Notes under the pieces: model-generated
The model's database searches: none
Seen by the model: the letters and a program-made list of their open reading frames with translations, nothing else
What the model was told of the DNA's origin: nothing
Made by a program: the position numbers and the translations under genes
Origin: Klebsiella phage phiKp_32
DNA: 64,000 bases
Direction: 5' to 3' (one strand)
Sequence record: LC768500.1
Part shown: positions 4,171-23,821 of the stretch, one piece after another
Layout: each line of letters starts with the position of its first letter
Position numbering within the stretch: position 1 is the first letter of the stretch

Positions 4171-4253
4171 GCAAAATCGAAGTCCGGGACACTATCCTTA
4201 TTTAAACCTATATTACGACCTAATGAAACTTAATGGTTTATCGGGAGCATTTA

Positions 4254-5264
4254 ATGGGATCAAGTTTAAGGCGAGATTTAAAAGAATTAGAGGAACATCC
4301 TCATTTTAAGGGGTTCTATAAGTGTCTTAGAGATGGGAGATTATGGCTCAATCCAGATAGCAACAATTACGTTATTTTGGAGAAGGATGGGAAAACTAAG
4401 AAGTTTTTTCTTTCTAAGAGAACGTCCAAAGGAGCCAGAGAGTATTTGAGGGTAACTATTTACGATAGCGGGAAAGAGCAGAACTCCTATCTTTATCACG
4501 TTATCAATGCCGAAACATTTTTAATAAAGCCCGACATACCCGATAGAAAACTGGAAGTTAATCACAAGAATTCTGACAGATGGGACGGGAGAGTTGACAA
4601 TCTTGAATATGTGACATCGCAAGAAAACATACGCCACGCTGTTGAGGCTGGTTCTTTTAATACGTTATCGGGATTTATTATAGATTTAACTACTGGAGAT
4701 AAATATTTCTTTTTCAGTTATTCGAGATTAATAACCGACTGGGGTTTTGACAGGTCCTCGGCAGAAAGCTATTTAAAAACCGATATGTCAGTCCCGCTTC
4801 TGTTTAAATGGGGGATAGAATTTGTCGGAGGTAAAAAATGCACTCTGACCAATGAGGATGTCGGTAAGTTCAGGAGAACACCAAAGTCCCCGATAAAGAT
4901 TTTAAATAAATCAACTGGTGAGGTGTCATGGGCCGTTAGCATGAAGGATTGTGCAAAAAAGATAGACTGTTCTCCTAGATTAATACATAAATTATTCTTT
5001 GGAAAAAATTCCTTCAGGTTAAAACAATGGGAAATTTCTTTTATAAATAATTACGAGGATTTTTTAAAATATCATGAGTATAAATCCACCATCGGCAAGG
5101 TCGGGGGTGTGCCAAAACCTATTTTCTTTATTCATGATAAAACCGGGGAGAAACTATCTTTTAAAACCATTACTGAAGCCTCAAAATACTTTAAGATTAC
5201 AAGAGGGAATCTTTCATTCTTAAGAAAACGCGGAAGTAAATTTTTAGGTTATAGTATAATCTGA
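4254..5264 (+). CDS. HNH homing endonuclease (HNH_3-type, free-standing)
   Basis: Motif VNHKNSDRWDGRVDNLEYVTSQENIRHA equals the HNH_3 catalytic core. Codons are extremely AT-rich. Start placed at ATG 4254 after a GGGAG RBS, although the ORF opens at 4233. Flanked by terminators. Confidence 0.7.
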   Translation: MGSSLRRDLKELEEHPHFKGFYKCLRDGRLWLNPDSNNYVILEKDGKTKKFFLSKRTSKGAREYLRVTIYDSGKEQNSYLYHVINAETFLIKPDIPDRKLEVNHKNSDRWDGRVDNLEYVTSQENIRHAVEAGSFNTLSGFIIDLTTGDKYFFFSYSRLITDWGFDRSSAESYLKTDMSVPLLFKWGIEFVGGKKCTLTNEDVGKFRRTPKSPIKILNKSTGEVSWAVSMKDCAKKIDCSPRLIHKLFFGKNSFRLKQWEISFINNYEDFLKYHEYKSTIGKVGGVPKPIFFIHDKTGEKLSFKTITEASKYFKITRGNLSFLRKRGSKFLGYSII

Positions 5265-7451: not shown

Positions 7452-7493
7452 AGTACATTTTATGTACTAGTGCCGTAAACAAATATTTGTTTA
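7452..7493. promoter_or_regulatory. pair of AT-rich palindromes immediately upstream of the capsid-candidate gene (operator/late-promoter candidate)
   Basis: AGTACAT-ttt-ATGTACT inverted repeat at 7452-7468. A perfect 18-bp palindrome TAAACAAATATTTGTTTA at 7476-7493 sits 26 nt before the start codon. Confidence 0.35.
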
Positions 7494-7518: not shown

Positions 7519-9705
7519 ATGAAGCGTACAATTAACGTCCGCAAAGGCTCCACCGCTGTAAAACCCCTGAACCTCGCGATGAGCGACATGTTTAGTCAGG
7601 GCGGCTTTAAATCTTTTACTGGTGTTGAAAACCTGGATACTGCGACCGACCAGTTCAATGCCATGTTTGCTGGCACCGAGTCACTGGCTAACGGTATTAG
7701 CCCAGAGTCTTCCAAACTGCTCAGCAACCTGACCAACTCTCAGCGTTTCGCGACCATCTCCAGCATCGCGTCGATGCAAAATGCGTTCCCGACCATTGAT
7801 CGTCGCCTGGCTGACTTCGCCGGTACCGAAGGTTTCTCAATGGCGCAGTTTGCTGGTGAGTCCGCTAAAGTTAAAGGCGTGAACATCACTCTGAACGCCC
7901 TGTCTCACCGTCAGACTGACGCTGCTGAAGCGCTATTCACAACCGTCACCATCCCGTACGCTGATGAGTACCTGGAGTTCTCCGTGCGTACTGCCGGCCT
8001 GGGTCGTTACATCTACGGTGCTGCTGCTGGCGAACGTGCTTCTGAGCTGGTACCGGTAATGAGCCTGATCCGCAAAGGTAAAGCCTTCATGGCTGATACC
8101 CTGCGCATGTATCCGGTTTATCCGACCGACTCGGCTGACCCGAACCGTAAATACTTCATGGCTGAGTCTGTATCTGCTGCTACCGAAGCCACTTACGACA
8201 GCGCCGATCCGCTGAACCGTCAAGCTCACAAGACCCAATACCTGAAAGTTCCGGTATCCGTACCGAACCTGGTTGGTCTGTCTGAAGCCCCGGGTCAGAA
8301 CCCGTTCGAAACTTCTGATGAAGTTGAATCCAACTCCATCCAGATGACCAACGTCGCACTGACCGCCAACGTCGGCGCTTCCGGCTCTGCTACCGCAGTT
8401 GTACTGCGTATGCCGACCGTGAACATGTCTCAGGCGCATTTCGGTATCGCTGCAATGGGTGCTTCTTCTGACGATCGTCAGATGGACTTCCAGGTACAGG
8501 GTCTGCCGGCGTCTGCACTGTTCAACATCGGTAGCGATACTGTTACCACCGCACTGGATGCACTGAAAGCGAATGGCGCTCAGCCGTTCTTCTCTCTGAG
8601 CATCACCGGTACTTACCAGCGTCAGACCAATACCCTGAAAATCCAGGGCGGTTCTTTCGAACTGGAGTACATCAAAGATGCGGCTGGCAACAAACATCTG
8701 CCGACCACTTCCAGCGCAACGATCAAAGCTCTGTTCGGCCTGTTCAATGATGGCGAAATCGCCGGTGTTGAACTGCGTTACAACCACACCAACATCAACC
8801 GCGTGAACTTCGGTTACCGTGTTGAAGTGTTTGACGCACGTAAAACTCTGACCACTCATCGTCAGACTCCGATCTCTGTTCGCTACCCGGTCAGCAAAGA
8901 AGATACCAATGAGGAATCTCTGAGCTACGCGATCGATCAGATGGCGATCATCCTGAACGCACAGACCACCGCAAACGCGTTTACCAAAGCTGAAGAGCAC
9001 GTTGATTACGTGACCTCCATCAACGGTTCGGCAATCGTGGGTAACGAGCAGGCGTCCAACGTCCTGGCCGGTATGCACTATGCTAACGCTGCGGCGATCA
9101 ACCGTACCCTGAAACTGGCTGACATCGTGTCTACCCAGGATAGCGTCGGTGTGGTCGACAACATCTCTGCGGCACTGTGCAACACCCTGAGCGAAATGGC
9201 AGCAGCGCTGGCCACTAACTCCGGTCTGGCTGCTATTGCCGAATACACCCGTGAAAAACTGAAATGGCAGGTTGTTGCCCATCAGAACATGGGTCGTTAC
9301 CTGATGCGTTCTGGCGACGCTCGTACTATGGGTGCGTATACCGACTTCGCGGTTGAACTGACTAACGTCGAAACCATGATCGGTAAATTCTACCTGGTAC
9401 CGCAGTCCGAAACCGACGGCAACACCATCGACCCGCTGGGTGGCATGGGTGTCTGCGTTGATAAAGAGCACGTTGTTGTTCAGGGTGACGTAACCCGTAC
9501 TGATCGTCAGTTCGGTATCCTGATGACCATGCCGATCTTCCAACACCACTCCGTGTGTCCGATCGTCGGCGTACTGACCGTTGAAGACGCGGTACTGGCT
9601 CTGAACGACGAAGGCCTGATCGACGCTCTGGCTAAACAGCGCGTTGTGGTTAACGGCGTTGTACAGTCTAAAGCCGGCACTGTAGACGACGGTAAGCTGC
9701 CGTAA
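7519..9705 (+). CDS. major capsid protein candidate (very highly expressed virion protein)
   Basis: 728-aa ORF with a striking switch to host-optimal codons (ctg, cgt, ggt, acc, atc) and a higher local GC than the flanks. It has an AAGGAAA RBS and is followed by a strong terminator. Its size is in the jumbo-phage MCP range. The identity is inferred, not motif-proven. Confidence 0.5.
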   Translation: MKRTINVRKGSTAVKPLNLAMSDMFSQGGFKSFTGVENLDTATDQFNAMFAGTESLANGISPESSKLLSNLTNSQRFATISSIASMQNAFPTIDRRLADFAGTEGFSMAQFAGESAKVKGVNITLNALSHRQTDAAEALFTTVTIPYADEYLEFSVRTAGLGRYIYGAAAGERASELVPVMSLIRKGKAFMADTLRMYPVYPTDSADPNRKYFMAESVSAATEATYDSADPLNRQAHKTQYLKVPVSVPNLVGLSEAPGQNPFETSDEVESNSIQMTNVALTANVGASGSATAVVLRMPTVNMSQAHFGIAAMGASSDDRQMDFQVQGLPASALFNIGSDTVTTALDALKANGAQPFFSLSITGTYQRQTNTLKIQGGSFELEYIKDAAGNKHLPTTSSATIKALFGLFNDGEIAGVELRYNHTNINRVNFGYRVEVFDARKTLTTHRQTPISVRYPVSKEDTNEESLSYAIDQMAIILNAQTTANAFTKAEEHVDYVTSINGSAIVGNEQASNVLAGMHYANAAAINRTLKLADIVSTQDSVGVVDNISAALCNTLSEMAAALATNSGLAAIAEYTREKLKWQVVAHQNMGRYLMRSGDARTMGAYTDFAVELTNVETMIGKFYLVPQSETDGNTIDPLGGMGVCVDKEHVVVQGDVTRTDRQFGILMTMPIFQHHSVCPIVGVLTVEDAVLALNDEGLIDALAKQRVVVNGVVQSKAGTVDDGKLP

Positions 9706-9775: not shown

Positions 9776-9884
9776 AATTTTTTAAGGACTATATTATCTC
9801 TGGGTAAAGGGTTGGTATAAGGGACCGCGCATCCCATACCAGATGAAGCTCTAGTCTAAAAATAAACCTTAAGGAAATTAACAA

Positions 9885-10918: not shown

Positions 10919-12589
10919 ATGGATCCTAAGTTACTGAAAGCGGTATCGGCTACGATGCCTAAGTTTAATGAAACGATAGCTTCAGGTTTCCATCAACGAG
11001 AATTTGAGCAAATACATAAACGTTATGAATATCTTTTAAGAATGACGTTTGAACCCATTGAAAAGAAAGGAGTATGGTTTGTTGGCGTCAGGTCGGTACG
11101 ACCTCATGAAATGTATAACGTCATCGCGAAGAACACACAGCAGAAAACCTTTGAAACAAACAAAGAAAGTCTTTATCCGGTTAAGCTCGTCTTTAAATAC
11201 GGGATGGATAAAAACACTGCCAGGGAGATGGATCCTGTTTACGTACTGCTCCCGTTCTGTGATCGGTATGGGGACGTTTGGATCAGGGGAAGCCAATACA
11301 GCCTACAGATAGTCCTGGCTGACCGAGGATTGAGCGTCACTAAAGACGATCAGATCTTCGTAAGACTCCTGGGATATAAATTCAAAGTAGGAACTGAGCA
11401 ATATGAATACACTCAGATCCACAATGAAATAAATCCTGTCAGGGAAACCAACCTTCCTATCAACCTTCCGGCTAACCGCTTCTACGTGGCCAGTGAAGCA
11501 CGTCGTCCAAACCCAACTAAAACACCCACACCTTTATTGGCGTGGTATGTGTTTGCGGAGTATGGTTTTAGCGAAACCATGCGTAAGTTCGGGGAATGCG
11601 ATTATGCGATAGGTGATCGTGATGCGATCATTCAGCAATATAGTGAAGATAAGGGTTGGAAGCTGTTTGGTAGTAAAGGATTGGCGATTGGTAAAAGTAT
11701 CACGCCATATGTGAATTGCGGGTTAGCTATAGCGGCTAAACCATTAAACGAAAAACGAAGAGGGGAAATACCTAACGTTGCACAACAGTATATTGCGGCA
11801 TTGCTTTATCTGTGTGATGTTGGCGGAGAATTTATTGATTTGGATAAACTCGACGATAAATATTTTTGGCGTATGATGGTCGGACACGCCAGTATTAAAG
11901 CCGGAGGAAATCTCACCCATTTGGAAAAACAGATGGCGGATCACTTCGATTCCATGAACGAAGGTTTAGACCAAACAAGTATCCAACGATTCGCTGAGCA
12001 ACGAATTGTGGTTAAAGATCGTTATGAATTGTTTAATTACATCATAGCGAATCGGGCTGAAATCGTTAAGACTTCCGATAAAGCCAATATGTTACATAAA
12101 GAAATTAGTTCTAGTGAGTTCACATTAGACAAACTGATTACTGCGGCTAACCGCTTTAAACACGATGTCAAAAACACAACAGAACTCAACTATGAACGTG
12201 TTAAGTCATTCATGTCATCTCATTTCAAATTACGCGATATCGAATCGGCTGCTTGGGAATCTAACATGATCCAAGAAGCTACGCCGACAGATTGCCCTAT
12301 CGCCGATTATGGCTTTGGGGTGATGTCTCAGGCGAAAGTGTTCGGTCCTCGTAATAACGGGAGAAACAGTGACTTTAACCCTAACGATCCCGCTAACTGC
12401 ATACATGGCTCTGTACCTTTTGTGATGAGTTTCCAACGGGTAACTAAACCCGACCCAAACGCTTGCGGATTCTTAGCCCCCTGCGTGTATTTGATCAACG
12501 ACAAATACTTGGGACTCAGACCAGAAGATGTGGAACTGTACGAAGCCACTGTGAGCAGACTTACTAAGTCTGAGGTTAAAATTAAATGA
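10919..12589 (+). CDS. hypothetical protein
   Basis: 556-aa ORF 11 nt after the previous stop. Small internal ORFs on both strands are taken as artefacts. Confidence 0.6.
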   Translation: MDPKLLKAVSATMPKFNETIASGFHQREFEQIHKRYEYLLRMTFEPIEKKGVWFVGVRSVRPHEMYNVIAKNTQQKTFETNKESLYPVKLVFKYGMDKNTAREMDPVYVLLPFCDRYGDVWIRGSQYSLQIVLADRGLSVTKDDQIFVRLLGYKFKVGTEQYEYTQIHNEINPVRETNLPINLPANRFYVASEARRPNPTKTPTPLLAWYVFAEYGFSETMRKFGECDYAIGDRDAIIQQYSEDKGWKLFGSKGLAIGKSITPYVNCGLAIAAKPLNEKRRGEIPNVAQQYIAALLYLCDVGGEFIDLDKLDDKYFWRMMVGHASIKAGGNLTHLEKQMADHFDSMNEGLDQTSIQRFAEQRIVVKDRYELFNYIIANRAEIVKTSDKANMLHKEISSSEFTLDKLITAANRFKHDVKNTTELNYERVKSFMSSHFKLRDIESAAWESNMIQEATPTDCPIADYGFGVMSQAKVFGPRNNGRNSDFNPNDPANCIHGSVPFVMSFQRVTKPDPNACGFLAPCVYLINDKYLGLRPEDVELYEATVSRLTKSEVKIK

Positions 12590-15087: not shown

Positions 15088-15723
15088 ATGAATCGTCCAA
15101 TTTTTAAAATTAGTCAGCACGCGCAGTTGTCGATCCCGGCCCTCATCGATGTTACAGAAAATGAAGCGGAATGCTCGTCACTTGTTTACGGCCTCCATCC
15201 TTCCATGACCGGGGTATTCTCTGAACGCCAGAAGGATTCAATGGCAGAGAGTCTTTACCTAATGGGTCAGTACGCCGAAATCATTCCCAGGAATAAGCCG
15301 GAGTGTACGATTGATTATCATCCCATCACTAACGAGCATTACCTTAAATCGTTTAAACATTATTACGAAGCATGGGTTGCTTTGGGTAGAGATGAAGTGG
15401 TGATGCAGGGAGCCACTGTTAGGGTTTCGTCGTTTTTATTATTAAGGACTATGTTCAATGGGGTCATAGGAATTCTACCTTATCTCGACCCCAAAGGACA
15501 TCGGATGCAAGCAAAGGAATACGCTAAATTAGACGATTTGGTTAAACTGACCTACGGCGTGCCCGCTGGGTCATTCTCGGCGACCCCCGATTACCAGGTT
15601 GTTCCTAAAATAGAGGTGCGGGAACAGATCGTGATGAGCTTTACTGACAAATACGGTAACGTCATCACCGTCACCGGAATCGATAGAGAAAAGATGATCG
15701 AACAGATAGAAAAATTAAAGTAA
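15088..15723 (+). CDS. hypothetical protein
   Basis: 211-aa ORF with an AAAGGAA RBS and a terminator hairpin at 15729-15762. Confidence 0.55.
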   Translation: MNRPIFKISQHAQLSIPALIDVTENEAECSSLVYGLHPSMTGVFSERQKDSMAESLYLMGQYAEIIPRNKPECTIDYHPITNEHYLKSFKHYYEAWVALGRDEVVMQGATVRVSSFLLLRTMFNGVIGILPYLDPKGHRMQAKEYAKLDDLVKLTYGVPAGSFSATPDYQVVPKIEVREQIVMSFTDKYGNVITVTGIDREKMIEQIEKLK

Positions 15724-15728
15724 TCGTC

Positions 15729-15790
15729 TTCCCTACCACTCCTTAACTGGGGTGGTAGGGAGTAAGAAAGCTTTAATTTTTTAACATGAA
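15729..15790 (+). terminator. terminator
   Basis: 14-bp stem (CCCTACCACTCC / GGGGTGGTAGGG) with a T-rich tail. Confidence 0.65.
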
Positions 15791-15865
15791 GATTTTTATA
15801 AGTCGATATCATTCAGGTGTATAAACAACAAGTATTTTAATTCTTATTCACTAAAGAGGTCCAAA

Positions 15866-16438
15866 ATGGAAATTCGTAAAGATATGATCAATGAAATCGC
15901 CGCTCGTATCATCTCTGGTTGCAACGACGTGGAAGCCAGTGTCCGCGAAAAGCTGCTGCGTAATTTGGTTAATGGTGAGATCTGGCAGTTCGAGCTCAAT
16001 GAAACTGAGCAAGCGGAACTGATCGCGATCGTAAGCAAAGAGTTCGGTATTTCCGATCTGGTCTACGTCGAACCGCAGAAAAACATTTCTGAAGAAGATG
16101 TCGCCAAAGTCGCTGCCAGTGTTAACGGGCATGTCGAACACAAATATCTGAATCTGCGAAATGCGATGGCAGTCGGCGCAGTACTCGGTGCTGGTGCGGC
16201 CATCTTAAAAGAAGGTGCGAACGCAATTAATGCCGGTGCTGGTGTGGTCGGCGCTGCTGTTTCTTACGGCGTGGGTTATCTGGCTGACAAGAAACATATC
16301 GGTATGGGTAATCAGTACGCTGATGTCGCGGCAGGCATTGTTGCCGGTGGCGTTATCGGTGGCGGCGCAGTATTTGGCGCGGGCTTTGTCGCCAAACGTT
16401 TCTTCAGCGATGAAGAAGTTGAAGTTGTTGCAGAGTAA
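15866..16438 (+). CDS. glycine-zipper protein, paralog 1 (abundant small virion or membrane protein)
   Basis: An N-terminal acidic soluble segment is followed by an AVGAVLGAGAAIL...GAGVVGAAVSYGVGY...GIVAGGVIGGGAVFGAGF GxxxG-repeat region and an acidic tail. Codons are host-optimal and there is an AAAGAGG RBS. Confidence 0.7.
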   Translation: MEIRKDMINEIAARIISGCNDVEASVREKLLRNLVNGEIWQFELNETEQAELIAIVSKEFGISDLVYVEPQKNISEEDVAKVAASVNGHVEHKYLNLRNAMAVGAVLGAGAAILKEGANAINAGAGVVGAAVSYGVGYLADKKHIGMGNQYADVAAGIVAGGVIGGGAVFGAGFVAKRFFSDEEVEVVAE

Positions 16439-16501
16439 TAAACGCATCTGAAATATCCGATGCATCTTAAATTAAACTATCAATAGTAAGGAAATACGAT
16501 C

Positions 16502-16894
16502 ATGAAAAAAGAAAACATTGAACTGACTGGCACTGAACTCGACGAAGCTAAAGCGATGCTGGCTGTTGATGCAGAAACTTCTCTGTTCGACGATATCTGT
16601 GAAAAACTCGGTGGCTACGTAGCTACCGACAAACAGAAAAGCCACGTGAAAGCCGCAGTGATCGGTGGTGTTATCGGCACCGCTCTGAGCATGGCGAGCA
16701 AACCATCTGTCGGCACGCTGATCGGTGGCGTGGTTGGTACCGCAGGTGGCGCTTATGTGGGTAGTCGTATCGCTGATGATCTGAGCAATCAGTTCATTGA
16801 CAAACTGCTCACCGCTGAAATTGGCTTCGTGTGTAGCGCTATCGGCGCATCCATCGGCGGGGCATTAACCCCGAGCAAAGTCGAAGCGGACTAA
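16502..16894 (+). CDS. glycine-zipper protein, paralog 2
   Basis: Same architecture as paralog 1 (VIGGVIGTALSMA...LIGGVVGTAGGAYVGS...IGASIGGAL) with optimal codons and a TAAGGAAA RBS. Confidence 0.7.
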   Translation: MKKENIELTGTELDEAKAMLAVDAETSLFDDICEKLGGYVATDKQKSHVKAAVIGGVIGTALSMASKPSVGTLIGGVVGTAGGAYVGSRIADDLSNQFIDKLLTAEIGFVCSAIGASIGGALTPSKVEAD

Positions 16895-16962
16895 ATCATC
16901 CAGTTCGTTCCACTACCGTTAAATTTTAGGCAACTCAACATCAAAACGTAAGAGGTAATATC

Positions 16963-17358
16963 ATGGATATGGCAAACAAACCTGCAGTTAACAAAGCTGC
17001 CTTGTCAGAAGAAGAAATTCTGAAAATGCTGGCTGGTCACAAATCCACCGATGCTAACTATCGGGTTGGTCGCATTGCTGGTGTGCTGGGCGCAGTTGTC
17101 GCCGGTGCGCATCGGACCGTCACCAATGGGGTTAAACCATCTACGGTGGTAGGTACAGTGGTAGGTGGATTGGTTGGATATAAAACGGGTAAAATGGCAG
17201 ACGGTTTCAGCGGGCTGACCGGAAGTCATTCACCGATTGCAGACGTCGGTGCATTCACAGCAGGGTACGGCGTGGCGCTGGGAATGAGCGCCCTGGCGGG
17301 TACGTTTGATCAGTACATCACACCGCTGTACGAATCAGAAGAAGAAACCGAAGAATAA
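16963..17358 (+). CDS. glycine-zipper protein, paralog 3
   Basis: Same architecture as paralogs 1 and 2 (IAGVLGAVVAGA...VVGTVVGGLVGY...GVALGMSALAG) with an acidic ESEEETEE tail and a bidirectional terminator after it. Confidence 0.7.
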   Translation: MDMANKPAVNKAALSEEEILKMLAGHKSTDANYRVGRIAGVLGAVVAGAHRTVTNGVKPSTVVGTVVGGLVGYKTGKMADGFSGLTGSHSPIADVGAFTAGYGVALGMSALAGTFDQYITPLYESEEETEE

Positions 17359-17364
17359 GAAAGT

Positions 17365-17417
17365 TAACTCCTCTACCCGTAAGGGTAGAGGAGTTACTTA
17401 ATTACTTATTTTTTTTA
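17365..17417. terminator. bidirectional terminator between convergent genes
   Basis: 14-bp stem TAACTCCTCTACCC/GGGTAGAGGAGTTA with a T8 run. The complement side is also T-rich. Confidence 0.8.
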
Positions 17418-20378
17418 CTCTGGAAGGGTGTCATCAACTTGGAAGTCGTCTTTCTTATTGCTGTCTTCTTCTGTCTCTGTTTCTTCCTCGGTTTGGTTTT
17501 CTTCTTTGGAAGTATCTGTTCCCGTCTCTTCTTCCTCGGTCGTTCCACCTTCCCCAGGCAAATCTTCCTCTATTGAGAAATCGTCGTCTGTCTGAGTTCC
17601 CTCTTCAGGGGTACCCTCATCAGCAGGTTGGGCGCCGAACTCATTCGCCGGAGGCTGTTCCGCAGGCATAATCTTTTCCAAACGTTTAGCCAGGCGATCG
17701 GTCTCTTTATTCCAGACCTTCATGAACTGTTCTAAGAACATTCCACTGTTGTCTACGTACTGAGATATGTTGTGGATTAACGAATAGATCCCACCTTCTT
17801 TACCCTTGTTACCGATAAGATCGAACGGCATAGGGAGGTTGAATCGATCATAGAGCTCGATCAGATAAGTGCTGCGAATAATGGATTTAGCTTTCTCAAT
17901 ATCCAGACCGCCGTTAGCGTCAACCTTGTTCATGATCATTTCAATCAGGCCCGACGTACCTGACATTTCAACCCACGAGTTTACAAACTGATTGACCGTA
18001 TCGATTTTATCTTTCAGTTTGGTTACTGATTCCTGAGTAGCCGGAGTCGGTAAGGTCACGGTGAGGTTGTTGATAAAGTCAGCCAGGATAACTTCAACGA
18101 TGTGCTCGTTAGTTCCCTCTATCTCTTCGCCGTTATCAGGTTTCCACAACGATTTGTTCTCGTTAATGGTGTCGACCAAACGATTCAACATAACCTGGTT
18201 AACCAACATATCCTTACGTTCGATCTCAGCAACAAAGTCACCCAATACCTTCTGCCAGATCAATGTTTGGTTGCGGAGCATTTCCTGCTCGGCCAATGCT
18301 TCGACCTGGAAGTTGGTTCCTTCTTCTTTATCGTCCAACCAAGTACGTTGGAGCTTAAAGGTGGAGGCGATGTTGTTGAGGAGGTTCTGTCTGGAGGTTT
18401 CGTCAATAGCTTTGAAGTTACCGCGTTCAACCGGTTCCAGAGTTATCTTGGGCCCGACCATCCACGGGTTACCGTTACTATTAACCTCAACGATCAGGGA
18501 TTGGGTCTTCATTGCTTCAACAATGTCGGGTACTGAAACAGTGCCCGAGTTTACTACGTTGTGAAGCGTTGGGTTCACCCTGAAGAACTGCGCCCTGGCC
18601 GTAGCAATCGTGCCATCCGGATCAACGTCATCTTCTTCCAGATCAACCACTAAACGCTGACGAGTTTGAGCTTGATCCAAGTTAGCCAGAATATCAGCAG
18701 TATCTAACGCTGCCAAACGTCCGATATGGAGTTTAGCCTGGTTAGTTAAAGAAGAGCCAATACCAAAGCTATTATAGTCAAACGCGACGTAGGTAAAGTA
18801 TTCGGCCGGAATGTAAAGCACCCGAACACCCTGCTGCTTGAAAGAACGAGCCAGGAAGATCTTCAGGTTAGCTTCAACCAATTCGACAGAAATATTTTTC
18901 CCGCTCACGCCAGAAGCAATTGCCTGGATAAGGGACTTCTCTATTTGATCTTTCGATAACAGGGCGAATTCTGACATATCGAAGTCACAATCAGCACCTT
19001 GCTGAACTTTCTTCAAATTAGCGATAAGTGCGTTAGTCCCACCCGTTTTATTGGGGGTATCGATTTTATCTTTCTGTCCCTTAGAGGACTGATAGAAGTT
19101 AAAGTCCCTCGTGCTTTTTAAGAACTCCCCATTTGACGGATCGAGTAGGGCAAAACCACCGATCAATTTAGTTCGGTCGCCTTCCATATGAACAGGAATA
19201 AACGCTTCACTTGGGATATGATACCGCAAAGGTATTCCATAAACAGAAGTGTCGTAAACCCCAGGACTCCGAATACTAATGGTCTGCCGATGCGGATAGC
19301 TTCGATGCGGATAAATTTCGTTTTGAAGGACTTCTAGCTGGCTCTCTGGCAAAACCTGAGTTTTAGTATCAGCGTTAGGGGTCCCGTTCTTACGTTTAGC
19401 CTTAGAGTCGTCAGGCTCTTTATTCGACTTCTTAGGATCTTGTTTCTTATCCTTGGTTGCCGCGGCCTCTTCTTCCTCTCCCTCGCCTTTTTTCTCTAGC
19501 CGAGATTTAATAAGGGAAGCAAGATCTTCCGTCCCACCAATGTCGTTAACGATCTTCTTCGTTAAAACCTGATTTACGGAACGAAGCGCTAACACCGCTG
19601 GGTTATCGGTTAGTGTGATGCCAAAACCTTCTCCTTCGTCATTCTCGATTAATTCGAACTCAGTAGAGGTGTCTGGCGTGGTGTGGCTAAACAAAGCCTC
19701 TAACCCATGAACCACGTTATTGAGCTGCTTAGGTCCCCTCACCAATCCTTTGTTGATGGCGAGAAACTTACCGTCGACATTTTTAAATTGCTTCTCAATC
19801 TCTGGTTTTATCTGAGCGTTAATGTAACTTTCGTTACCTGTCACTCCGTCTTCTCCAAACTGCTGACCGTTGATAAGGTGATCCAGCGCAGGTCTAGAGA
19901 TGTTCAAAAGCACGTAGGATCCTGTACCGAATAACCCGTCTTTGATGAACTCCGGTAACAGCTTCTCGATTTTATAGTCGCTGGTATAGTAGGTTTCCGT
20001 CTTACGGAGCAACTCTTCATGCAGCTTAGTATTTTTAAATTGAGACCGCAAAGTATCGTGAGTAAGGATCCTTTCCTGTAATCCGTTCGGGTAGAGGAGA
20101 AGCGTCTTCCAGATTAATTCCGCCCGCGAAACATAAGGTGTGATTTCCCTTAAGTCAGTTGCCGCATTGATATTGCTGGCAATGATATCGCTGATCTTTT
20201 TTAATTTGGAAGGTTGGACTTTACGTTCTTTCTCATCCGTATTTCTGGTATGATCTCTCTCGTCCCGAACGAGGTTCCGAACGACGCTTTTTAACGAGGG
20301 GCTGATATTGTTTAAATTACCCCTGAGTTTGGTTTGATCGAGGTAATCATATCCTCGGGTTGAACGCGTTCTATTCAT
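17415..20378 (-). CDS. large virion protein, portal protein candidate
   Basis: 987-aa ORF on the minus strand, convergent with the Gly-zipper genes and divergent from the 20404 operon. It has an extended acidic C-terminal tail (EEETGTDTSKEENQTEEETETEED). Size and head-module position suggest a portal, but no motif proves it. Confidence 0.4.
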   Translation of the reverse strand: MNRTRSTRGYDYLDQTKLRGNLNNISPSLKSVVRNLVRDERDHTRNTDEKERKVQPSKLKKISDIIASNINAATDLREITPYVSRAELIWKTLLLYPNGLQERILTHDTLRSQFKNTKLHEELLRKTETYYTSDYKIEKLLPEFIKDGLFGTGSYVLLNISRPALDHLINGQQFGEDGVTGNESYINAQIKPEIEKQFKNVDGKFLAINKGLVRGPKQLNNVVHGLEALFSHTTPDTSTEFELIENDEGEGFGITLTDNPAVLALRSVNQVLTKKIVNDIGGTEDLASLIKSRLEKKGEGEEEEAAATKDKKQDPKKSNKEPDDSKAKRKNGTPNADTKTQVLPESQLEVLQNEIYPHRSYPHRQTISIRSPGVYDTSVYGIPLRYHIPSEAFIPVHMEGDRTKLIGGFALLDPSNGEFLKSTRDFNFYQSSKGQKDKIDTPNKTGGTNALIANLKKVQQGADCDFDMSEFALLSKDQIEKSLIQAIASGVSGKNISVELVEANLKIFLARSFKQQGVRVLYIPAEYFTYVAFDYNSFGIGSSLTNQAKLHIGRLAALDTADILANLDQAQTRQRLVVDLEEDDVDPDGTIATARAQFFRVNPTLHNVVNSGTVSVPDIVEAMKTQSLIVEVNSNGNPWMVGPKITLEPVERGNFKAIDETSRQNLLNNIASTFKLQRTWLDDKEEGTNFQVEALAEQEMLRNQTLIWQKVLGDFVAEIERKDMLVNQVMLNRLVDTINENKSLWKPDNGEEIEGTNEHIVEVILADFINNLTVTLPTPATQESVTKLKDKIDTVNQFVNSWVEMSGTSGLIEMIMNKVDANGGLDIEKAKSIIRSTYLIELYDRFNLPMPFDLIGNKGKEGGIYSLIHNISQYVDNSGMFLEQFMKVWNKETDRLAKRLEKIMPAEQPPANEFGAQPADEGTPEEGTQTDDDFSIEEDLPGEGGTTEEEETGTDTSKEENQTEEETETEEDSNKKDDFQVDDTLPE

Positions 20379-22915: not shown

Positions 22916-23821
22916 ATGGCAACTGACACTCAACAATCTTCCAACTCCAGACTGCCCAGTCAGATTGTTACCGCAACAGCATTTGGTGTGAAGATCGCGA
23001 TCGCCGCTATTACCAAACAAAACGTGGAAGTCGAACAATACACCACGCTCAACGAAATACATTCCGTCCTGGCTGATGAAAGTTTGGGTGTGAAAGCCGG
23101 TTCTGACTTTACCCTGAAGTATTATGGGTTAGGCGTTAAGGGTTCTCAGTTCATTGGTAACGACGCCAACGGCATTGCCCGTATGTTGGTTAACCAACAT
23201 CAGCCGATCGACTGTAACGCGTTCTATCCCATTCCGCTTGTCGTAAGAGAGCTCTCCGACGACCTCACCGCGGATCAACGTGCTAACTACCGTATGCGTG
23301 TTGTTTTTACTAAAGATAGTGTGACTTACGTCGCTTACTATCTGCGGGTTATCAGTTTTGCGGCGTTCAGTCCGTCGATTGTAAAAATCACGAAGGATCC
23401 TACAACGGGTAACGAAGATCCTGATGTTTACGTTCCGACCTCTGACTATCAGCACCCGACTCCGATCACGCCTAATAGCGACGGTACCGTTCCGCTTTCC
23501 AATCAGTATGTTTCGGCAACGGGTAAACTGGATCTCAGTATCGATGCGTCAGGGCTGGCTGAACTTCGCAACGCCTGTTCAATTATGTTCGGCGATGAGT
23601 CTTACGCCGCTCCAAACGAATATTACGTTTGCACCGGTATCGATACCCCGAGCTCTGGTCAGACGTCCGGTTCCATTAATGTTTCCTATACAGAAGCTGT
23701 CAGCGCAATCATCGCTTACTTCATTACGGAAACTCATCCTCGCGATGCTAATGCGAACGGCGCAATTGAAATGTTCTTTGATATCGGAGCAAGCGCCCCG
23801 TTGTTGCTGGCTTCTAGCTAA
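22916..23821 (+). CDS. hypothetical structural protein (moderately codon-optimised; tail tube/sheath-class candidate)
   Basis: 301-aa ORF with an AAGGA RBS. Codons are better than in the neighbouring genes. The alternative-frame ORF 23424-23843 is rejected. Confidence 0.5.
   Translation: MATDTQQSSNSRLPSQIVTATAFGVKIAIAAITKQNVEVEQYTTLNEIHSVLADESLGVKAGSDFTLKYYGLGVKGSQFIGNDANGIARMLVNQHQPIDCNAFYPIPLVVRELSDDLTADQRANYRMRVVFTKDSVTYVAYYLRVISFAAFSPSIVKITKDPTTGNEDPDVYVPTSDYQHPTPITPNSDGTVPLSNQYVSATGKLDLSIDASGLAELRNACSIMFGDESYAAPNEYYVCTGIDTPSSGQTSGSINVSYTEAVSAIIAYFITETHPRDANANGAIEMFFDIGASAPLLLASS

Follow-up and report, generated by a model that had tools for sequence, protein, structure and literature searches.

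Signal-anchor-release (SAR) domains and the pinholin S21-68 of phage 21 contain weakly hydrophobic, Gly/Ala-rich helices able to sit in a membrane or leave it, with a glycine zipper for oligomeric packing; the zipper motif, as described by Kim and co-workers in 2005, is said to be GxxxGxxxG, or small-xxx-small, in register. The T4 proteins IPI–III are paralogous, fast-evolving and very abundant late products, packaged and then ejected together with the DNA, as are the PF12699 inner-body proteins of chimalliviruses such as Goslar and phiKZ. The Gly-rich segments of tape-measure proteins are presumed to pass into the inner membrane as ejection takes place. Here we analyse three adjacent genes (15866–17358) in a 64,000-nucleotide stretch of Klebsiella phage phiKp_32 (record LC768500.1; hereafter the window), which an earlier note on this DNA had described as tandem glycine-zipper paralogs. 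The feature is real and was described largely correctly. The three genes (the trio) appear to code for diverged paralogs within a family that had not been described before and has so far been found in phages only, and their codon usage carries a high-expression signature that recurs in related phages. We tentatively read the products as an abundant late, probably packaged, conditionally membrane-inserting oligomer, a reading to which we give a probability of about 0.4.

The region is 95.7% identical at the DNA level to Klebsiella phage Miami (genus Miamivirus), and five further related records also match. Miami is regarded as a chimallin-encoding, nucleus-forming phage distantly related to Erwinia phage RAY (PMC10299810), and its annotation names RisingSun, EL, OBP and VP4B as relatives. 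Chimalliviruses package and eject many abundant proteins of unassigned role, and what shapes the membrane of the early-infection vesicle is described as still open (bioRxiv 10.64898/2026.04.21.720040). Much current work is devoted to nucleus-forming jumbo phages, and the family would be an abundant component that current annotation leaves blank. Its interest lies in the lack of cellular homologues, in codon usage predicting near-capsid abundance in seven genera, and in an architecture that seems suited to oligomerisation and conditional membrane insertion; the long-studied laboratory phage EL has a single copy, gp082.

The trio and its family

The three genes, referred to below by the names of their Miami homologues, are the following.

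15866–16438, plus strand: paralog 1, Miami gp041 homologue, 190 aa, annotated as hypothetical protein in Miami
16502–16894, plus strand: paralog 2, Miami gp042 homologue, 130 aa, annotated as hypothetical protein in Miami
16963–17358, plus strand: paralog 3, Miami gp043 homologue, 131 aa, annotated as hypothetical protein in Miami

The open reading frames (ORFs) are adjacent, co-directional and exactly as previously described. Their dN/dS ratios with respect to Miami are 0.07 (gp041), 0.24 (gp042) and 0.07 (gp043), with conservative replacements; they are real genes under purifying selection.

The statement that the products are paralogs finds no support in composition-adjusted pairwise BLASTP (not significant, E 0.4–9) but is upheld by phmmer, jackhmmer and profile searches. 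In a database of 544 ORFs drawn from the window and six related loci, all non-self phmmer matches were family members, with E values of 3e-4 for gp041–gp043 and 2e-4 for both gp042–VP4B AGB07264 and gp043–RisingSun gp87. When jackhmmer was started from gp043, the most central member in iterative searches, it gathered gp041, gp042, RisingSun gp87 and VP4B AGB07264 from this database and no false ORFs. The three cores align over ~100 aa at ~30% identity, and a profile built from them retrieved only 7 clusters (125–195 aa) from 1.84 billion representative proteins, with no generic glycine-zipper or Gly-rich proteins. Five of the seven were retrieved as trio-type sequences, two being confirmed on phage contigs, and the clusters examined comprise gp041, gp042 and diverged orthologues of each paralog.

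The order of the three paralogs is also kept in two diverged metagenomic relatives. A metagenomic contig (L008) shows the order polymerase, 797 aa, 209 aa, 195 aa, 127 aa, 140 aa and a portal gene on the opposite strand. Identity to the window is 75% for its portal protein and 44, 32 and 40% for its trio proteins. A second contig (L009) likewise holds the three genes in order, so the triplication predates these lineages and each copy has been retained. The only repeats shared by the trio at the DNA level are short runs of Gly/Val/Ala codons, which rules out a recent tandem duplication, and any duplication must therefore be old. One or two copies lie between a gene resembling phiKZ gp124 and the portal gene in six other genera, the members at this locus being RisingSun gp87, VP4B AGB07264 and AGB07265, pEt-SU 070, AH04 130, ZPAH34 UOX39586 and EL gp082. 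A family hidden Markov model (HMM) recovered EL gp082, which was outside its training set, at 3.8e-7 among 885 ORFs; the window proteins score from 1e-34 to 1e-41, being training members. The trio shows all the features by which the family is defined here, namely a three-helix core recognised by the HMM, location between the gp124-like and portal genes, and capsid-like codon usage.

An alternative account of the likeness is that three unrelated ORFs share a low-complexity Gly/Ala composition and owe their codon bias to that composition, or to avoidance of internal Shine-Dalgarno-like GGA/GGG runs. The BLASTP result is what this account would predict; the narrow yield of the core profile, the recovery of EL gp082 from outside the training set, the separate orthologues of each paralog in conserved order and the dN/dS range of 0.07–0.24 all speak against it.

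As far as these searches reach, the family appears limited to a single clade among the nucleus-forming jumbo phages, with EL, RisingSun, Miami, Tidunavirus, pEt-SU, AH04 and ZPAH34 as its carriers. A tblastn search of 50,697 phage records with each trio protein, RisingSun gp87 and pEt-SU 070 gave same-genus matches only, a word-indexed search of 5.8 billion proteins returned only near-identical Miamivirus sequences, and an IMG/VR scan with the gp043 subfamily yielded no confirmed locus. Nothing usable was found in the literature on EL gp82 (YP_418115), Miamivirus or ZPAH34 proteomics. In EL, gp082 (L014 9242–9598) adjoins the phiKZ gp124-like gene and is separated from the portal gene by ~20 small genes (gp083–gp102), while pEt-SU, AH04 and VP4B carry inserted genes on the other side of the family member. 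Since the insertions fall on differing sides, the ancestral order was seemingly gp124-like gene, glycine-zipper gene and convergent portal gene.

Codon usage

The codon adaptation index (CAI), calculated with E. coli weights, is 0.673 for the major capsid protein (MCP) gene, 0.583 for gp042, 0.443 for gp041 and 0.363 for gp043 (ranks 1, 2, 3 and 6 of 59 genes), with a median gene at about 0.245. Because Gly/Ala/Val-rich proteins might score high through composition, the CAI of each gene was set against the value expected if the same protein were encoded with the background codon usage of the window; the resulting z scores are 19.2 (MCP), 6.5 (gp042), 4.8 (gp041) and 2.8 (gp043). In an internal test, the log-likelihood of MCP codon usage versus background, the trio occupies ranks 1–3 of 58 genes (+0.27, +0.06 and -0.31 bits per codon), the others having a mean of -0.82 and a standard deviation of 0.19. 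The “extreme host-optimal” usage proposed in the earlier note is genuine, in that it is capsid-like, but graded: “extreme” fits gp042 only, and gp043 is modest.

Gly codons supply part of this signal, as the low-complexity account would have it. The bias nevertheless stays after removal of Gly codons, or of all Gly/Ala/Val codons, and is seen in the N-terminal parts, which are not Gly-rich, as well as in the cores. That account is largely refuted, and we regard it as essentially excluded.

The signature extends to the relatives. CAI reaches 0.69 in RisingSun gp87, 0.67 in pEt-SU 070, 0.64 in AH04 130 and 0.50 in ZPAH34, and the L008 trio has values of 0.52, 0.49 and 0.35. In EL gp082 the Gly, Ala and Leu codons are the same as in the EL capsid gene. 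The two Vibrio phage copies are weaker, the E. coli weights being least suited there. Altogether, top or capsid-like adaptation is found in six of eight copies outside the trio, mostly the highest or joint-highest in their own locus. The conservation of this high-expression signature across seven genera is the strongest new result of the analysis. It supports the very high expression that had been proposed for the trio and extends it to other genera; codon usage suggests production in near-capsid amounts. Of the other window genes with z above about 2.5, most can be assigned to the virion by match or annotation, namely those for MCP, the portal, the gp047 homologue and a “virion structural protein”.

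Clearly capsid-like codon usage is otherwise confined to the homologue of Miami gp047 (22916–23821; z 4.8), whose counterparts in RisingSun, pEt-SU and AH04 are likewise codon-adapted. Its L008 orthologue has PF23838/DUF7208, and it is placed where Goslar has abundant DUF7941 fibre genes, beside the baseplate wedge gene.

Protein architecture and membrane propensity

The three proteins follow a common plan. They open with a helix or domain that is hydrophilic and mostly acidic, continue with three helices rich in Gly/Ala/Val (helices 1 and 2 joined by a turn into a hairpin, then helix 3) and close with a short acidic tail. Within the core, a basic or aromatic residue precedes helix 1, which is followed by a short NG..PS-type turn, helix 2 ending in Y..G(K/R).AD, a linker of 12–16 aa, helix 3 and the tail. 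The individual parts are listed below, with the predicted local distance difference test (pLDDT) where it applies.

gp041 aa 1–69 (nt 15866–16072): extra N-terminal three-helix domain, pLDDT 61–90
gp041 aa 96–180 (nt 16151–16405): core of three Gly/Ala-rich helices, acidic tail SDEEVEVVAE
gp042 aa 46–125 (nt 16637–16876): core with in-register zipper G71-G75-G79-G83-G87, preceded by an acidic amphipathic N-helix
gp043 aa 33–116 (nt 17059–17310): core with G64-G68-G72-G76, conserved SHSP...D(V/I)G linker, acidic tail YESEEETEE

The Gly/Ala-rich part thus comprises three helices over about 85 aa and not, as had been described, a single GxxxG segment of 35–50 aa. Compared with composition-preserving shuffles, i,i+4 periodicity is significant in gp042 (P 0.002–0.007) and in gp043 only for the small-xxx-small-xxx-small pattern (P 0.003). 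In gp041 it does not exceed the shuffles (P 0.3–0.5), a further point on the side of the low-complexity account. Taking the trio together, the GxxxG pattern has a P of 0.01 and the small-residue triplet a P of <0.0002. The N-terminal part has a net charge of -8 in gp041 and -6 in gp042; in gp043 (-1) it is not acidic, contrary to the earlier description. The last 12 residues carry -5, -1 and -6, respectively, the supposedly acidic tail of gp042 being barely negative. AlphaFold2 predicts all-helical folds, gp042 consisting of two short N-terminal helices followed by three long ones (pLDDT 41).

The hydrophobic stretches are about 15–19 aa long and their computed insertion energies are marginal or unfavourable: Kyte-Doolittle maxima over 19 residues are 1.3–1.9, Wimley-White octanol values lie at about 0 to +2.5 kcal/mol and Hessa-scale 19-residue sums at +2.5 to +9 kcal/mol. 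Helices of such limited length and weak hydrophobicity cannot be called transmembrane with confidence, and in this they are SAR-like. Neither a signal peptide nor a lipobox was recognised on reading the sequences, whose N-termini (MEIRKDMINE..., MKKENIELTG... and MDMANKPAVN...) are hydrophilic and acidic. The membrane-pore activity suggested earlier is plausible from composition.

Profile searches returned sub-threshold matches. For gp042 the scores are 23.3 bits with Gly-zipper_YMGG (PF13441; cut-off 28.9), 21.5 with Gly-zipper_Omp (PF13488; cut-off 25) and 14.4 with Rick_17kDa_Anti (PF05433, “Glycine zipper 2TM”; cut-off 24.2), whereas gp041 and gp043 match none of the three. At E up to 0.1 these families are matched by 2–4 of the 16 members of the present family (best 5e-5, 2e-4 and 0.014). 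Membership in Gly-zipper_Omp or Gly-zipper_YMGG, which the earlier note had put forward for checking, therefore does not hold at the curated cut-offs. The NCBIfam model for the YiaD glycine-zipper/OmpA-like lipoprotein gives 20.1 bits (cut-off 175; E 4e-4), and one family member matches the holin Hol118 at E 0.025. In PHROGs the members fall in families of unknown function. A PDB profile search returned nothing relevant (best E 0.04, an unrelated enzyme), Foldseek with the gp041 model found nothing in BFVD or PDB apart from Miami itself, and no literature was found joining glycine zippers with jumbo phages. The view of the earlier note that this architecture belongs to no characterised phage family is supported by these searches.

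Part of this evidence would fit non-packaged proteins of the infected-cell inner membrane, whose helices insert late as a hairpin or as three helices and act as a holin/antiholin- or pinholin-like lysis timer, in membrane remodelling or in superinfection block. The sub-threshold matches to glycine-zipper hairpins (YMGG, Omp, Rick_17kDa and YiaD) and to Hol118 point this way, as does a composition like that of Gly/Ala-rich SAR and pinholin transmembrane segments. Basic residues also stand just ahead of helix 1 (KQKSHVK in gp042, YRVGR in gp043). The short hydrophobic stretches with their unfavourable energies, the lack of signal peptide and lipobox and the acidic, not basic, C-termini pull in the opposite direction. 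So does the capsid-like codon adaptation conserved here over seven genera, which to our knowledge is not typical of holins. We consider such a cell-membrane role the main rival to the packaged reading, and somewhat less probable than it.

The same weak hydrophobicity, below that of standard transmembrane helices, would suit proteins that are abundant and soluble and serve in assembly or structure, away from any membrane (for example scaffold-like or head-cementing components, or assembly chaperones), with the zippers packing a helical bundle or fibre. All-helical predictions, capsid-like codon usage and an acidic net charge agree with this, many scaffolding proteins being acidic. No similarity to a solved capsid, scaffold or inner-body protein was found, however, and no member of the 16 has a match to PF12699, the chimallivirus inner-body family, at a limit as loose as E 0.1. 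Nothing comparable occurs in the published Goslar virion model, which comprises 28 structural proteins in 2,888 chains, or in the list of abundant Goslar proteins, and Goslar lacks the family gene at this locus. The trio also diverges fast for a core structural part (32–44% identity, versus 75% for the portal). A purely soluble role appears less probable still than one in the cell membrane.

Gene neighbourhood and expression signals

The window has a GC content of 44%, so the genome described earlier as AT-rich is only moderately so. The features around the trio are the following.

7519–9705: MCP gene
after the MCP gene in gene order: EL gp079 homologue
10919–12589: “polymerase” gene (phrog_2943), in a position equivalent to phiKZ gp123, a non-virion RNA polymerase subunit
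after the “polymerase” gene: gene for a 797-aa protein, in a position equivalent to phiKZ gp124 and Goslar gp38
directly before the trio: gene for a 211-aa protein (Miami gp040 homologue)
15710–15781, plus strand: hairpin formed by an imperfect inverted repeat of 33 nt, lying across the stop codon of the Miami gp040 homologue
15782–15865, plus strand: AT-rich leader of the trio, with a TTTTAA...TTAT motif (15835–15848) and the Shine-Dalgarno sequence AAAGAGG (15853–15859)
16488–16492, plus strand: Shine-Dalgarno sequence AAGGA of gp042
16950–16955, plus strand: Shine-Dalgarno sequence AAGAGG of gp043
17365–17396: perfect hairpin (14-bp stem, 4-nt loop) between the trio and the convergent portal gene
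17415–20378: portal gene (987 aa), convergent with the trio, matching Goslar gp36

Goslar gp36 is a dodecameric portal by cryo-EM, and a 695-aa gene beyond the portal occupies, by position, the place of Goslar gp35, a baseplate wedge protein. The trio does lie between the MCP and portal genes, a location in favour of soluble head-assembly proteins, but the non-virion RNA polymerase subunit homologue and other non-structural genes intervene. The surroundings are no clean head module; virion and non-virion genes are mixed, and since the neighbours include non-virion genes, the positional argument for head proteins is weaker than it had been stated. The non-virion character of the adjacent upstream genes would agree with a cell-membrane role for the trio, as would the annotation of Miami, in which this stretch has spanins and no annotated holin. 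The spanin homologues, however, are at about 25.5–26.3 kb, ~8 kb from the trio and separated from it by portal, baseplate and RuvC-like genes, which places the trio outside any lysis cassette.

The hairpin at 15710–15781 is likely a terminator isolating the trio from the upstream operon. That at 17365–17396 was scored as intrinsic-terminator-like on the minus strand by the scan, and a terminator is annotated at the equivalent place on the plus strand of Miami; it is therefore read as bidirectional. The trio is likely its own transcription unit, bounded by these hairpins. The Shine-Dalgarno sequence in the leader also agrees with the ribosome-binding-site annotation of Miami. Synonymous divergence from Miami (dS) is mosaic, with 0.63 in gp043 and 0.32 in the portal gene, and 0.01–0.16 in MCP, gp037–gp042, gp045 and gp047, which suggests a recombination block (16963–20378) across the convergent terminator.

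The motif TTTTAA...TTAT occurs upstream of the gp037 homologue (9780–9798) and of the first trio gene (15835–15848), and resembles two features annotated in EL as “putative phage promoter”, TATTTTAAACCTA(C/G)ATTAT (L014 3802–3820; L015 1609–1627). TTTTAA-N-TTAT has 7 matches in the window versus 1.9 expected, at least 3 of them intragenic. The copy upstream of gp041 may be regarded as a putative promoter. Neither ATTTTATG, counted across the window, nor TTTTTATAA was enriched, and a sigma-70 promoter scan of the window gave chance level. CATTTTATGT stands upstream of the major capsid gene both here (7455–7464) and in EL (L014 about 1371–1380), and may be the core of a late promoter.

Two further observations were made in this region. 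The ORF at 4233–5264 is a compositional outlier (GC 0.363, CAI z -5.6), where Miami annotates just a 152-aa gene whose best match is a Lelliottia protein; it may be a recent acquisition, or a wrong start picked by a naive ORF caller. The record OR529409.1, labelled “Stenotrophomonas phage BUCTxx100”, shares 95% identity with the Miamivirus phages of Klebsiella over the region, and its host label looks odd for such a close relative; it carries a “mobile element protein” insertion within the matched stretch.

Proposed role

We rank a packaged or ejected, membrane-inserting role first, a role in the cell membrane second and a soluble structural or assembly role third. The first place is given because most of the other codon-adapted genes of the window encode virion proteins by match or annotation, because chimalliviruses package many abundant proteins of unassigned role, and because a soluble-to-membrane design suits an ejected protein. 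In such a scheme the proteins would be late products of very high abundance, with some hundreds to thousands of copies per virion equivalent. Their glycine and small-residue faces would then drive tight helix packing into homo- or hetero-oligomers, while weak hydrophobicity and the shielding acidic N- and C-terminal parts would keep them soluble until contact with a membrane, in the manner of colicin-type or SAR-type conditional membrane segments. In the last and least certain step they would be packaged in the capsid, ejected with the DNA and inserted in the host inner membrane, where they would help to form an ejection conduit or to shape the early-infection lipid vesicle.

Several observations weigh against this proposal. 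The one proteomic dataset touching the family, a shallow liquid chromatography–tandem mass spectrometry analysis of a crude RisingSun lysate, lists 31 phage proteins; gp87 is missing from them despite having tryptic peptides of 12–21 aa, and a protein confined to the cell membrane could claim this absence in its favour; the dataset is a weak negative, because the portal was missed too and a single tail-sheath peptide was found. The upstream neighbours are the non-virion RNA polymerase subunit homologue and the phiKZ gp124/Goslar gp38-like protein, and the main text of the Goslar virion paper makes no mention of Goslar gp37, gp38 or gp40. phiKZ, Goslar, PCH45 and Deimos-Minion, which form early-infection vesicles as well, have no family member at this locus; for PCH45, for which Tn-seq and proteome data exist, the scan covered the first 50 kb. 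The overall net charge is acidic, and the AlphaFold2 confidence of the cores is low (pLDDT <50), only the N-terminal 69 aa of gp041 being moderately confident. No conserved S/A/G-x-E prohead-protease motif was seen at the junction of N-terminal part and core on reading the orthologue alignments. Finally, the CAI values depend on the weights of Sharp and Li (1987), of which the MCP-referenced test is independent.

A bolder version of the packaged role, which we think improbable though worth stating, would have a high-copy protein ejected with the genome whose glycine-zipper hairpin inserts in the inner membrane and bends or seals it round the incoming DNA. Such a protein would be a phage-encoded factor that builds or stabilises the early vesicle, or an ejection pore, in the EL/RisingSun/Miami clade, the Miami paralogs forming a hetero-oligomer. 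If the proteins are indeed packaged and membrane-active, they would represent a new class of ejection or vesicle-shaping protein; if they belong to the cell membrane, they could be a missing lysis or membrane-control factor in phages with no annotated holin.

Comparison with known systems

The best, though weak, local profile matches are the bacterial glycine-zipper hairpins, all below curated cut-offs. Like the trio, these have a helix 1–turn–helix 2 unit (~40 aa) of two short Gly/Ala/Val/Ile helices with in-register GxxxG. Unlike the bacterial glycine-zipper lipoproteins, the phage proteins have no lipoprotein signal peptide and carry in addition an acidic N-terminal part, a third Gly-rich helix and an acidic tail.

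With SAR domains and S21-68 the trio shares small size, phage origin and weakly hydrophobic Gly/Ala-rich helices. It differs from them in showing no detectable sequence similarity, in not lying beside endolysin or spanin genes, and in its acidic rather than basic tails, its three paralogs and its capsid-like codon adaptation.

T4 IPI–III and the PF12699 inner-body proteins resemble the trio, whose packaging is putative, in abundance signature and gene organisation only. The PF12699 proteins are much larger (about 370–1100 aa in Goslar), and the trio has neither a PF12699 match nor a capsid-targeting or protease motif that could be found. The abundant or injected Goslar virion proteins gp60 and gp61 were considered as analogues and rejected, being of 300–368 aa and unrelated. 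The Gly-rich segments of tape-measure proteins show a weak similarity (gp41 in PDB 9b45, E 0.11; phrog_16692 and phrog_20938, of >1000 aa and unassigned function, ~3e-3). These matches are not significant, and in contrast to tape measures the family consists of free-standing proteins of 118–195 aa encoded outside the tail module. Among these systems, the family is best called an uncharacterised addition to the glycine-zipper small-protein theme.

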